From an uncultured Alphaproteobacteria bacterium (GTDB taxonomy: Bacteria; Pseudomonadota; Alphaproteobacteria; Rs-D84): DNA of 34,711 nucleotides. The translations under genes and the position numbers were made by a program. Shown piece after piece: positions 22,068-28,174 of the stretch; positions within the stretch are counted from its first letter, which is position 1; every line of letters begins with the position of its first letter. Where the stretch lies: positions 1 to 34,711 of the forward strand of contig CALXXY010000006.1 in assembly GCA_944392815.1 (NCBI GenBank), given 5' to 3'. The notes beneath the pieces were generated by a model. It was not told where the DNA came from. It saw only the letters and a list, made by a program, of their open reading frames with translations, and made no database searches.

Positions 22068-22114
22068 CTGTTGTATATATGCGATATGCTCGATATATTG
22101 CAAATATACAACAG
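22068..22114. repeat. 20-bp imperfect inverted repeat abutting the RBS of the first OMP gene
   Basis: CTGTTGTATATATGCGATAT-(7 nt)-ATATTGCAAATATACAACAG, 18/20 complementary. Confidence 0.8.
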
Positions 22115-22124
22115 GGGGGAAAAA

Positions 22125-22859
22125 TTGAAAAAATATTTATTTTTAATTCCAGCAATATTTGCATGCGCACCAGCAATCGCAAATGATATGAATCCGTATT
22201 TTAAATTAATGCTGACGGGGTCAGTTGTAAACAACGATTTAAATGTTGTTGGCGATTATTCGTTTGGCGGCGTGACGCATTATATAAACACTATGTCAGA
22301 TGACACGCACAGTGACTTTGCATTTGGTGTAAATACCGGATTTGGTGTAAAAATGGATTTGCCATGCGGCGGCGCATTACGTATGGATTTAACATTTGAT
22401 TGGACGGCCGATGCCACAGACAATAATGATTTTGATTTTGCAGTAAAAACACCATATACACATAATTTCGAATCGACTACATCTATGTACGATATTATGT
22501 TGAATATGTATTACGATTTTACAAATCGCAGTCCATTCACACCATTTATTATGGCGGGCCTGGGTTATGGTCATATGAAAATAGAAACTTTGACCACAGG
22601 CACAATCAAATCACCGGGTGATTTGAATATCGCGACCGACATGAAATCTGATAATTTTATATGGAATATTGGCGCGGGCGTGTCATACAGAATGTCTGAT
22701 AATATATCAATTGATTTGATGTACAGATACACAGATTACCAGGACACAAATAAAAATATGTCGTTAATGGTACTGGGCCTGGGGGCACCAATGATGGTTG
22801 ACGCAGATTTCGACGTCAGCAAACATGAATTTATGCTGGGTATGCGATACGCATTTTAA
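22125..22859 (+). CDS. Outer membrane beta-barrel protein (opacity/porin, OMP_b-brl-like)
   Basis: TTG start after GGGGGA RBS, signal peptide, N.YYDF....FTPFI.AGLGY, WNIGAGVSY, DLMYRY, C-terminal G.RYAF. Confidence 0.88.
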   Translation: MKKYLFLIPAIFACAPAIANDMNPYFKLMLTGSVVNNDLNVVGDYSFGGVTHYINTMSDDTHSDFAFGVNTGFGVKMDLPCGGALRMDLTFDWTADATDNNDFDFAVKTPYTHNFESTTSMYDIMLNMYYDFTNRSPFTPFIMAGLGYGHMKIETLTTGTIKSPGDLNIATDMKSDNFIWNIGAGVSYRMSDNISIDLMYRYTDYQDTNKNMSLMVLGLGAPMMVDADFDVSKHEFMLGMRYAF

Positions 22860-22862
22860 CAT

Positions 22863-22895
22863 AAAAAACACCGGTAAATACCGGTGTTTTTTTTT
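22863..22895. terminator. Bidirectional terminator between the convergent OMP genes
   Basis: AAAAAACACCGGTA-AA-TACCGGTGTTTTTTTTT. Confidence 0.85.
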
Positions 22896-22914
22896 ACCAC
22901 AAGGATACAGGTAT

Positions 22915-23649
22915 TTAAAATGTATACCGTGCACCCAACATGAATTCATGTGTTGCGATATCGAAATCGGCATCGACTGGCAAAATTGCTTTCAACCCAA
23001 TGATGTTTAATTCGCCATTTGCGTCCACTGAACCATAGTTTGTATAACGATACATCAAATCAATGGCCAGGTTTTCTGTTAATTCATACGCAACACCGGC
23101 ACCAACGCCCCATACGAAATTATCGGCATTAATATCTTTGGAAATATCAATGACACCATAGTCTGATATACCCGCAGCAGCGGTACTCAGTGCGATGTGT
23201 CCATACCCCAATCCCGCGGTCAGGAACGGCACAAAACTGGTTCCTGTGTCAAAATCATAATACAGGTTAAACATTACATCATACAGTGATGTTGTTGATT
23301 CGAAATTATGCACATACGGCTTTTTTACTTCAAAATAGAAATCATTGCCGTCTGTTGCATCAGATTTCCAATCGAACGCAAATTCACCACGCAGTGCACC
23401 ATAGCCCAAATCCAGTTTTGCACCAATTGCCGCATTTGCGCCAAATGCAAAATCACTGTGTGTTTCATCGGCCAGGGTGTTCACATAATGCGAAACGCCA
23501 CTGGACGAATAATCGGAAATAACCGTCATATCGTTATTCACCACGGAACCAGTCAGACGCAGTGCAGCATATGGACTGATTTCAAATGCCATCGCAGGCG
23601 CGCTGGCCATTGCAACACCCATACCGATCAAAGCAAATGATTTTTTCAT
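22915..23649 (-). CDS. Outer membrane beta-barrel protein, paralogue of 22125-22859
   Basis: ATG 23649 after AAGGGG RBS, signal peptide (AMA), same barrel motifs, C-terminal GARYTF. Confidence 0.9.
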   Translation of the reverse strand: MKKSFALIGMGVAMASAPAMAFEISPYAALRLTGSVVNNDMTVISDYSSSGVSHYVNTLADETHSDFAFGANAAIGAKLDLGYGALRGEFAFDWKSDATDGNDFYFEVKKPYVHNFESTTSLYDVMFNLYYDFDTGTSFVPFLTAGLGYGHIALSTAAAGISDYGVIDISKDINADNFVWGVGAGVAYELTENLAIDLMYRYTNYGSVDANGELNIIGLKAILPVDADFDIATHEFMLGARYTF

Positions 23650-23676
23650 GTTTAACCCCTTGTTTTGTATTTTGTT

Positions 23677-23855
23677 AAACAAAACCGCACAAATTATTTT
23701 GGGCGGTTGGAGGTTAACGACAATGTTTCGGTATTGTGTTGCTTATTCAGTACACTCACAACCATCCAACCACGTGTTGGAGAATTTCGTCCGCATGTCG
23801 CGAACGCCGAAACCACAGGGTCGTTACACCCCGCCACGGGAACACCCCGTGACGT
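23677..23855 (-). ncRNA. Unclassified structured RNA (sRNA or cis-regulatory leader of the OMP gene)
   Basis: GC-rich intergenic block with at least five helices and G-U pairs favouring the minus strand; upstream TTGTGT-16-TATATT promoter with extended -10; ends in a hairpin plus U tract. Confidence 0.65.
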
Positions 23856-23899
23856 TATTTAATATACCACAAAGGAATATAAACACAACAATAAAAATC

Positions 23900-24550
23900 C
23901 TAGGCATACTTGCACCAGCGTGCAACCGGGCATTCATTGCATTTCGGACGAATTGCCCGACAAATATACCGGCCATGTAAAACCATTACATGATTTACAA
24001 TCGGGTGATATTTTTTTGGAATAATTTTTAATAATTGTTCTTCGACCTTTTCGGGGGTATTCGCGTCTGCGCCAACCCAACCATATCTGTGTGCGTTGCG
24101 AAAAACATGGGTGTCCACCCCTATGTTCGGCGCACCCCACAACACATTCATAATAACATTGGCCGTTTTTTGACCGATGCCGGGCAATTTCATCAATGCG
24201 TCACGATTATGATATTTTTTTGGAAATTTATAATTGTCATCTGCGCCGCCGCCATCATTCATTAATACCGCGGCCAACCCCATAATACTTTTCGCTTTGT
24301 TATTAAAAAAAGACAACACACGAATATGCTGTTTTAATCCATCTTCGCCAATGGCAATCATTTTCGCGGGTGATGGCGCCACACGAAATAATTCCGGTGT
24401 CACTTCGTTAACTTTTTTATCAGTCGCCTGGGCCGACAAAATCACCGCCACCGCAAAAGTAAATTCATTCACGGAATACAGTTCCGACCGTATGTTCATA
24501 TTAATAACAGTCGGAACATATTTAAAATAAATTTCTGGTGTCAGTTCCAT
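23900..24550 (-). CDS. nth: Endonuclease III
   Basis: ILSAQATD, HhH motif LPGIGQKTAN, VDTHV.R, [4Fe-4S] motif C.AIRPKC..CP....C. Confidence 0.95.
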   Translation of the reverse strand: MELTPEIYFKYVPTVINMNIRSELYSVNEFTFAVAVILSAQATDKKVNEVTPELFRVAPSPAKMIAIGEDGLKQHIRVLSFFNNKAKSIMGLAAVLMNDGGGADDNYKFPKKYHNRDALMKLPGIGQKTANVIMNVLWGAPNIGVDTHVFRNAHRYGWVGADANTPEKVEEQLLKIIPKKYHPIVNHVMVLHGRYICRAIRPKCNECPVARWCKYA

Positions 24551-24553
24551 CAA

Positions 24554-24937
24554 TTATTCAGAAAATTTAAATCCAGCCAGGCGCCCTTCGCATAATTTTT
24601 GACAATCTGTATTGCAAATATTACGTACCTCGTCCGCGGTGTCGCCTGTTAATTCAACGGTATCAACCCATATGTTTTTATGTGTGGCGTCCGATGCAAA
24701 GCACATACAGCGTGCAGTATATGTTTCGCTGTTTGTTTTTTCGTCACGGACGACCTGGCCATTAATTGATTCGAAATCAGATGAAAAACTTTTGGTGACA
24801 CCAATTCCCGCACATTGCGACGTAATCGTCACAGTTTTTTCATCTGTGTCCAATGTGCCGACATAAAAACCAGCCATAAACACCAACAACACACCAATAA
24901 TTCCAAATAACCAATGCAAAGAACTGTGTATATGCAT
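24554..24937 (-). CDS. Hypothetical membrane-anchored Cys-rich protein
   Basis: 127 aa, one N-terminal TM helix, six Cys, AGGGG RBS; lies in the ileS-nth operon. Confidence 0.7.
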   Translation of the reverse strand: MHIHSSLHWLFGIIGVLLVFMAGFYVGTLDTDEKTVTITSQCAGIGVTKSFSSDFESINGQVVRDEKTNSETYTARCMCFASDATHKNIWVDTVELTGDTADEVRNICNTDCQKLCEGRLAGFKFSE

Positions 24938-28098: not shown

Positions 28099-28174
28099 TG
28101 GTGCCGGTTATAGGACTTGAACCTACGACCCCCTCATTACGAATGAGATGCTCTACCAGCTGAGCTAAACCGGC
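28099..28174 (-). tRNA. tRNA-Thr(CGT)
   Basis: GCCGGTTTAGCTCAGCTGGTAGAGCATCTCATTCGTAATGAGGGGGTCGTAGGTTCAAGTCCTATAACCGGCACCA: full 76-nt cloverleaf with encoded CCA. Confidence 0.97.

Follow-up and report, generated by a model that had tools for sequence, protein, structure and literature searches.

The 250-nucleotide (nt) gap between nth and an outer-membrane protein (OMP) gene on the minus strand of the window, which is the whole 34,711-nt stretch of DNA analysed here (contig CALXXY010000006.1) from an uncultured alphaproteobacterium of the order Rs-D84, holds one copy of a structured RNA that is a new family. We consider it probable that the region is one instance of a portable promoter-leader cassette, in which a two-state terminator/antiterminator switch answers an effector. 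Copies of the element share a common structure, two mutually exclusive sets of helices, promoter-like and terminator-like motifs, and a position before co-oriented genes.

The architecture of the RNA in what we call state A can be followed along the window copy, where all features lie on the minus strand. A 5'-terminal hairpin, P0 (23832..23854, with 23846-23854 pairing to 23832-23840), is followed by the 5' strands of two long-range stems: P1 (23820..23831, made up of P1a, GGG, and P1b, TAACGAC, and pairing with 23711-23721) and P2 (23807..23816, pairing with 23723-23731). The cores of these stems, TAACGAC/GTCGTTA for P1b (23820-23826 with 23715-23721) and GTTTCGG/CCGAAAC for P2 (23807-23813 with 23725-23731), can be read directly in the sequence, as can the P4 hairpin TCCAAC/GTTGGA (23776-23781 with 23765-23770). 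P4 is one of three arms of the four-way junction that the stems close. The others are P3 (23788..23806, CGTTCGC/GCGGACG, 23800-23806 with 23788-23794), whose length varies, and P5 (23735..23764), with a covarying stem (23758-23764 with 23735-23742) and a 16-nt loop (23742-23757) that is the most conserved unpaired sequence of the family. An intrinsic-terminator-like hairpin with a T-rich tail ends the RNA (23677..23708; 23698-23708 with 23683-23693, then TTTGTTT).

The minimum free energy (MFE) fold of 23649-23860 has this multi-stem architecture at -75 kcal/mol (z-score -3.81), and one of 200 dinucleotide shuffles was equally stable. All the stems listed in the original prediction were found on the minus strand where it had placed them, and the promoter (-10 at 23861-66) and terminator that it put at the two ends are present and conserved among the copies. 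Its central proposals, a structured RNA of about 180 nt and a switch-like architecture, are borne out by the covariation described below, which exceeds all 500 shuffles and every slid control and extends to mutually exclusive helices.

The element is repeated in its own genome. A DNA search of 61 related genomes showed that within the genus 28 of them, the own genome included, carry several copies of the 3' half of the region; BLAST did not find this half in the 24 genomes of other genera of the order. Sensitive blastn detected seven further whole-unit copies in the own genome (927 kb) at 63.5-67.4% identity, and eight same-genome copies, about 65% identical, each fold alone into the same architecture. 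When aligned, the own-genome copies have in common a promoter-like block, the 5' hairpin, the two long-range stems and the three arms; a CTCCAAC/GGTTGGAG hairpin and a 16-nt loop are invariant, and a CCTCCAACC box and a CCACC...GGTGG hairpin with a T-run are also shared. RNAalifold missed the long-range stems on the raw MAFFT alignment because that alignment was not structural; the consensus structure was instead set by hand on alignment A1 and used for a covariance model, R1 (180 positions, 49 pairs). R1 returned 16 matches in the own genome at E up to 1. Ten of these score 109.5-166.6 bits, including two from outside the seed (142.8 and 109.5 bits), and two weaker ones score 38.2 and 32.9 bits. 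The unit of promoter, four-way-junction RNA and terminator is thus present in at least 10 copies in a 0.93-Mb genome. One of them (C2:2741-3134, L042:1703-1894), in which P2 pairs poorly, precedes a gene cut to 64 amino acids, the paralogue on C4 being longer than 87, and is possibly a decaying cassette.

Covariation was evaluated in two structural alignments: A4, with 81 copies (79 distinct) mostly from the genus and drawn from 74 loci, and A3, whose 48 copies represent other genera and families and come from 46 of the 51 loci L167-L217 (L194, L204, L209, L216 and L217 were omitted because they overlap, are weak or are truncated). Both alignments were fitted to R1, so that pair counts lean towards the model, which weakens them as evidence for the switch. 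Standard pairs fill 94.1% of cells in A4 (70.9% in shuffles) and 93.0% in A3 (64.1% in shuffles), with none of 500 shuffles reaching either value, and 43 of 49 pairs in A4 and 46 of 49 in A3 are changed on both sides. Compensatory cells number 897 in A4 and 615 in A3, against 251 and 182 after shuffling, and slid controls pair in only 31-48% and 33-49% of cells, respectively. Within A4, every pair of P0 (8/8, 96.5% of cells paired), P1b (7/7, 98.2%), P2 (7/7, 98.2%) and P5 (5/5, 97.3%) shows changes on both sides, and helix 8, the terminator, is paired in 94.7% of cells (93.7% in A3). P3 is the least well aligned helix (74.2% in A4, 70% in A3). Independent single-sequence folds agree with the R1 structure. 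The covariation is very strong and the structure far beyond chance.

Two kinds of structural variant were seen among the copies. In L210:1501-1690, L167:1501-1679, L199 and L206 an inserted mini-hairpin (GAAUAAGGC...GCCAAAUAAG) interrupts the conserved P5 loop, whose two AAUA-containing strands therefore make up a conserved internal, not a simple terminal, loop. Two 'core-only' copies of genome G133 (L189:1501-1625 and L193:1501-1617) match only model positions 27-144; they have neither the 5' hairpin nor the terminator, yet lie 26 nt before signal-peptide genes.

A second set of helices competes with this fold. The 5' strand of P4, a1 (CTCCAAC, 23776..23782), has a copy, a2 (CCTCCAACC, 23705..23713), which follows P1 and overlaps the 5' arm of the terminator: the first four nucleotides of a2 pair with P1a, and the last four are terminator 5' arm; a2 and this arm have four alignment columns in common. 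The 3' strand of P4, s1 (23763..23771; GGTTGGATG in the window copy, GGTTGGAGG in most copies), can pair with either a1 or a2. It is this s1:a2 helix that is conserved, and not the antiterminator of the original prediction, in which GGCGG (23831-35) was to pair with CCGCC (23702-06): for the latter, 67.6% of cells are paired, which is no better than shuffles, whose value is 66.7% and of which 76 out of 500 do as well.

The three segments vary together across lineages. The genus has CUCCAACC for a1, GGUUGGAGG for s1 and CCUCCAACC for a2; the corresponding sequences are CCUCCUGC, GCAGGAGG and CCUCCUGCC in L211, L213, L214 and L206; UUCCUAC, GUAGGAAG and CUUCCUAUC in L173, L177, L181 and L185; and CUCCAAAC, GUUUGGAG and CCUCCAAACC in L200. 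New variants of the trio appear outside the order, where s1 and a2 read GGCAGGAAG and CUUCCUGCC, GACCGGAAG and CUUCCGGUC, or GGUCGGGGU and ACCCCGACC. The joint change can be seen in single columns: in A3 the P4 pair at columns 151-226 is AU 22 times and GC 15 times, and the s1:a2 pair at columns 226-373 is UA 18 times and CG 16 times; in A4 a pair unique to the alternative helix (columns 203-297) is GC in 54 copies, UA in 17, UG in 2 and something else in 6.

A further alternative hairpin, H-alt (23720..23737, ACAAT/ATTGT, 23733-23737 with 23720-23724), encloses the 3' strand of P2. Its pattern, CNAU...AUNG, is paired in 94.2% of cells in A3, and its second pair in A4 (columns 260-285) is AU in 45 copies, UA in 30 and other in 1. 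Because linker residues are absent, the topology implies that H-alt excludes P2. Taken together, s1:a2 and H-alt are paired in 96.4% of cells in A4 and 93.6% in A3; none of 500 shuffles reaches either value, and slid controls pair in 29-60% of cells. The window copy is slightly divergent: a single U-C mismatch interrupts its s1:a2 helix, its P5 loop departs from the consensus at three positions, and its terminator is weaker than in its paralogues. Since the two helix sets are exclusive and both covary, the RNA would have two states: state A, with junction and terminator, and state B, with s1:a2, P5 and H-alt and no terminator. H-alt arises spontaneously in folds forced into state B.

These observations suggest the following mechanism. 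A sigma-70-type promoter would start an RNA of about 175 nt. In state A, P0 would be followed by the closing stem P1/P2, the four-way junction with arms P3, P4 and P5, and then the terminator; the terminator would form and the gene, whose ribosome-binding site lies 10-30 nt further on, would be off. In state B, s1 would leave a1 and pair with a2, which overlaps the 5' arm of the terminator, while H-alt replaces P2, and with the terminator blocked RNA polymerase would read into the gene. We infer that the two states control termination in this way, that 'off' is the default, and that an effector, be it a small molecule, a protein or a second RNA, shifts the balance towards B. A switch acting in cis fits best because it accounts for the fixed position before genes, the terminator, a platform that changes with lineage and two exclusive covarying folds.

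A leader could also be a constitutive module of the 5' untranslated region (UTR), without any switching, that protects the mRNA or sets the level of translation and spreads because it is a good expression signal. The 5' UTR of E. coli ompA is such a case: it begins with a 5'-terminal hairpin, and has no terminator, no four-way junction and no dispersed family. The window RNA resembles it in having such a hairpin, P0, at the predicted 5' end of the leader of an outer-membrane protein gene, and the element is linked to highly expressed envelope proteins. A homologue of the window OMP at the same locus in relatives (51% identity) works without the element; in L117 it has a similar promoter and a plain 5' UTR of about 95 nt, with the element absent. 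Unlike the ompA 5' UTR, however, the window RNA has a terminator, a four-way junction and a dispersed family. The well-paired terminator is conserved between promoter and gene, and a selected second, exclusive helix set has no role in a static module, which makes this explanation very improbable.

Upstream of the 79 distinct A4 copies is a conserved -35-like tTTg with a -10-like block; 52 of these 79 regions score at least 9 of 12 against TTGACA/TATAAT, and the -10 ends 3-4 nt before the model start in 48. In the window, a -35-like hexamer, TTGTGT (23883..23888), whose function is presumed, lies 16 nt upstream of an extended -10, TGgTATATT (23861..23869, TATATT at 23861-23866 preceded by TG). 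Because the best -10 ends 3-4 nt ahead of the model start, transcription of the window copy would start at the base of P0, at about 23852-23856. At the other end, T-runs follow the terminator hairpin in the aligned copies. A simple terminator scan did not call the terminator of the window copy, whose loop is longer than the scan's 8-nt limit. The element carries what defines a predicted intrinsic terminator, a G+C-rich hairpin and then a U tract.

In 119 of 142 copies a co-oriented open reading frame (ORF) begins between -45 and +60 nt relative to the model end, 88 of the 119 having a Shine-Dalgarno sequence and ATG, with a median gap of 23 nt; three of the 142 copies have no downstream ORF. 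In the window copy the start codon of the OMP gene is 27 nt past the model end: the gene (22915-23649, minus strand; ATG at 23647-23649, Shine-Dalgarno AGGGG at 23656-23660, region 22915..23660) encodes a 244-amino-acid outer-membrane beta-barrel (Pfam OMP_b-brl, 5.2e-15). That the RNA stands upstream of an OMP gene holds for the window and fails as a rule, OMP genes being only one of many contexts. A Pfam scan covered 103 of 131 distinct downstream ORFs, from which short or run-off fragments, ORFs inside arrays and near-duplicates had been left out by eye. Only 2 of the 103 proteins are OMP beta-barrels. XRE-type helix-turn-helix proteins (HTH_3, HTH_31 or HTH_19) account for 14, and PAP2, ABC exporter, Stealth, DsbA, hexapeptide transferase, Gly_rich_2, DUF285, Ephrin_rec_like and SMC_N occur once each. 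Below-cut-off matches alone were found for 5 and no match at all for 73, so OMP or transport genes do not always follow, and the contexts are diverse, most of the proteins being unclassified and others XRE-type regulators. By a crude rule, 58 of 117 downstream proteins are signal-peptide-like, against 118 of 507 control ORFs of the own genome. Many copies precede a family of small Cys-rich secreted proteins (a signal peptide, then ..VTKCVALNS..; no Pfam match), at C4:1-263, C3:90246-90686, C4:89509-89937 and C1:75691-76131 of the own genome and in L060 and L023.

Four copies (L177, L181, L182 and L186) have no terminator and run straight into a Shine-Dalgarno sequence and ATG, with a2, which is anti-Shine-Dalgarno-like, lying 8-10 nt before the Shine-Dalgarno sequence. 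In these few lineages a2 might act by sequestering the Shine-Dalgarno sequence, a hypothesis on which the folds bear as described next.

Several findings weigh against the switch. In the terminator-less copies, MFE folds pair a2 with the Shine-Dalgarno sequence in only one of four; the latter is unpaired in L181 and L182 and, in L186, partly paired with something other than a2. State A is the thermodynamic ground state: forced-B folds are 8-20 kcal/mol less stable at full length, and an RNA ending before the 3' arm of the terminator still favours A, by 1.8 (window copy) up to 12.8 kcal/mol, so state B needs help. A third alternative hairpin, H5alt (GGGG around the P1b 5' strand with CCYC), can be proposed only tentatively, as it shows a marginal excess over shuffles and slid controls pair at 77-81%. 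The genes that would be regulated have no common metabolic theme and offer no hint of a ligand. As to candidate effectors, GGDEF, DAC and RelA_SpoT domains were not found in the own genome (96.8% complete), and a single NusG N-terminal domain match was all that it returned; the usual second messengers, c-di-GMP, c-di-AMP and ppGpp, and factors of the RfaH/LoaP type are therefore unlikely. Transcript evidence, taken from Logan contigs of three metatranscriptome runs of two studies in which no ends, strand or level could be read, gives a weak hint of read-through into the OMP gene: single low-depth contigs from RNA runs (23458-23809, 23505-23698 and 23531-23802) lead from within the leader through the terminator into the start of the OMP gene, with DNA carry-over possible. 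The three RNA runs do not cover nth and most of the OMP gene, a gap that carries no weight either way, and a probable DNA run covers the whole region.

The tandem arrays carry the most direct challenge to a simple leader. Four units in L059, four in L086 and three in L063 follow one another without a gene between them, with spacers that measure about 67 nt in L063 and L086 but less in L059. In L086 every later unit retains a TTGATA-17-TATAAT promoter and a terminator, plus the remnant of a ribosome-binding site; array units of this kind, each with a near-consensus promoter and a terminator, would release free RNAs of about 175 nt. At their ends the arrays are followed by a gene for a small protein of 63-123 amino acids (one with an HTH_3/HTH_31 match, two without match). 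Such gene-less arrays fit a stand-alone small RNA (sRNA) better than a simple leader: a multi-copy gene for a trans-acting RNA of about 175 nt, which would work as a protein sponge or through its anti-Shine-Dalgarno-like CCUCC, with the downstream genes mere neighbours, or else a terminated leader with a second job. The promoter and terminator of each unit, the high copy number (at least 26 per genome in places), the invariant loop and a ground state that forms the terminator, from which short RNAs should be abundant, all agree with this.

An sRNA does not, however, call for a start codon at a fixed short distance, as found in the 119 positioned copies, nor for terminator-less copies fused directly to a Shine-Dalgarno sequence and ATG, and pairing inside a single molecule is the simplest explanation of the three-way covariation. 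Neither extended complements of the P5 loop nor Shine-Dalgarno sequences resembling s1, which could be targets, occur in the own genome outside the elements, and Hfq and CsrA domains were not found in it. The RNA-library contigs that cross the terminator into the coding region point the same way, weakly. The alphaproteobacterial AbcR and CcsR 'cuckoo' RNAs are tandem sRNAs with anti-Shine-Dalgarno motifs and short hairpins, and depend on Hfq. The element resembles them in its CCUCC-type motifs, tandem copies and alphaproteobacterial host, and differs in that no Hfq was found, in the missing Rfam match and in CCUCC segments that pair within the same molecule. We regard an exclusively or mainly trans-acting RNA as unlikely; arrays lacking genes, together with a terminator state of such stability, nevertheless make a stand-alone or dual sRNA role conceivable.

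The locus itself varies. Among 80 loci around relatives of nth, from Candidatus Enterousia or uncultured Alphaproteobacteria metagenome-assembled genomes from animal guts, 7 have the element after nth and on its strand (L087, L113, L114, L124, L137, L148 and L157), and a homologue of the window OMP occurs in 3 (L087 at 91% identity, L117 and L123 at 51%); 13 copies from nth loci make up alignment A2. In close relatives (L088, L096 and L100) nth and pheT lie next to each other and converge, with about 65 nt between them. In the window, a second OMP beta-barrel gene (22071-22859, plus strand) starts 13 nt after pheT, and a palindromic terminator (about 22858-22892) separates the two OMP genes. 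Because nth and pheT adjoin in relatives, both OMP genes and the leader look like insertions around this terminator, and 22071-23899 is, as far as gene order tells, an insertion hot spot for surface-protein genes. The neighbour upstream of the leader is nth (23900-24553, minus strand; endonuclease III, HhH-GPD), itself directly preceded by a 127-amino-acid ORF without Pfam match (24554-24937, minus strand). tRNA genes adjoin several copies and two tandem arrays (L086:2077-2150, L063:1824-1897, L045:1764-1850, L047:2711-2872 and L219), and these copies may mark island-like integration sites.

Such variability would also be expected of a mobile or recombinogenic repeat, either similar to a miniature inverted-repeat transposable element or serving as shared homology for the exchange of surface-gene cassettes, with RNA structure secondary. 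Presence differs from locus to locus in the counts just given, nth and pheT abut in close relatives, and several copies lie beside tRNA genes. Yet copies only about 65% identical keep every helix by compensatory changes, which argues for selection on the RNA and not recent transposition, and the orientation relative to the next gene is fixed. None of the 103 downstream proteins scanned is a transposase, and no search for terminal inverted repeats or target duplications was made. A repeat with incidental RNA structure seems hardly credible to us, and the cis-acting switch remains the reading that we favour.

No known family was recognised. Rfam 15 (4227 models, including 6S, T-box, c-di-GMP-I/II and self-cleaving ribozymes) returned one tRNA from the whole window at gathering thresholds (28102-28174, minus strand, 69.2 bits) and only tRNAs from 18 homologous loci. 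At E up to 10, region 23550-24000 gave five chance-level rows (best E 1.9-3.8, far below gathering); the absence of TPP, cobalamin, SAM, lysine, T-box, SRP, RNase P and tmRNA signatures noted in the original prediction was thereby upheld. An atypical 6S RNA, which it had kept in view, is refuted by fold, copy number, Rfam and the gene start directly downstream, and its probability is close to nil. 6S RNA folds as one long, irregular hairpin that opens into a central bubble, and a genome usually has one gene for it; the element shares with it a length of about 180 nt, and has instead a four-way junction, 10 or more copies per genome, a terminator followed by a gene start and no 6S match even at E up to 10.

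With riboswitches the RNA has in common a covarying structured domain, an exclusive expression platform and a position in the 5' leader. The likeness is closest to terminating riboswitches such as c-di-GMP-I, which occur in many copies per genome before genes for surface and secreted proteins: both have a covarying 5'-leader domain, exclusive terminator and antiterminator helices and a platform that varies between lineages, and both are present in many copies with envelope genes downstream. In contrast to that class, the family has no Rfam riboswitch match, and no GGDEF domain was found in the own genome; the antiterminator uses an internal P4 strand and not the 3' strand of P1, every copy comes with a promoter, and units may follow one another in tandem arrays that lack genes. 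Like T-box leaders, it is a structured leader of about 200 nt that occurs in multiple copies and at whose end terminator and antiterminator compete, but there is no Rfam T-box match and the downstream genes are not those of aminoacyl-tRNA synthetases or amino-acid metabolism.

Attenuators of the trp type follow a 1:2 / 2:3 / 3:4 pairing logic, and the chain a1:s1 and a2:terminator versus s1:a2 is likewise one of four segments. The segments here sit in a large four-way junction that also refolds (P2 versus H-alt), and no conserved leader peptide could free segment 2. A 17-codon upstream ORF (23743..23796) is present in the window copy, as had been pointed out, but ATG-ORFs span the region in only 54 of 107 copies, in frames divided 24/16/14, and hence no short ORF over segment 1 is conserved. 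The RNA is a new family, then, whose switch logic is like that of riboswitches and four-segment attenuators and which has the defining features of no named family.

The element is common in its genus and extends beyond it. R1 detects it in 95 of 101 genomes of the genus and 74 of 76 high-quality ones (150 matches listed and 889 more), and copy numbers are high, often with at least 26 scored candidates per genome. Across the order it is found in 103 of 121 genomes and 13 of 20 genera, with 87/91, 1/4, 12/19, 0/1, 1/2 and 1/3 genomes positive in the six families. In the class, sampled at one genome per family, 8 of 151 genomes are positive, which corresponds to 6 of 149 from other families; these matches (E 3e-12 to 8e-4) come from genomes of 1.1-2.5 Mb, and the four out-of-order matches that were aligned have the same architecture. 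In the titles and opening parts of abstracts, supplements aside, no paper found on Enterousia or Rs-D84, nor any found by combining Rs-D84 with RNA terms, deals with such an RNA, and a term search of PMC12306168 found no 'RNA', 'riboswitch' or 'repeat'.

The genus Enterousia belongs to the uncultured order Rs-D84 and, according to the parts of PMC12306168 consulted, has reduced genomes under 1 Mb and a probably partner-dependent life, the cells being thought to live off partner cells. Almost nothing is known of gene regulation in this group, Rs-D84 / Candidatus Enterousia. The cell surface is the interface with host or partner, and an RNA element before many genes for secreted proteins, outer-membrane proteins and regulators would be a central control point for it. 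The element is small and abundant and shows clear two-state covariation, which makes it a test case for a new riboswitch ligand or RNA-binding regulator. We tentatively entertain the broader possibility, short of expecting it, that this new class of RNA switch is the main regulatory device of a whole uncultured, partner-dependent lineage of gut Alphaproteobacteria: at 10 to 26 or more copies per ~0.9-Mb genome, the cassette would let one signal govern both the variable surface proteome and the XRE-type regulators, and terminated leaders and gene-less arrays may feed back in trans.

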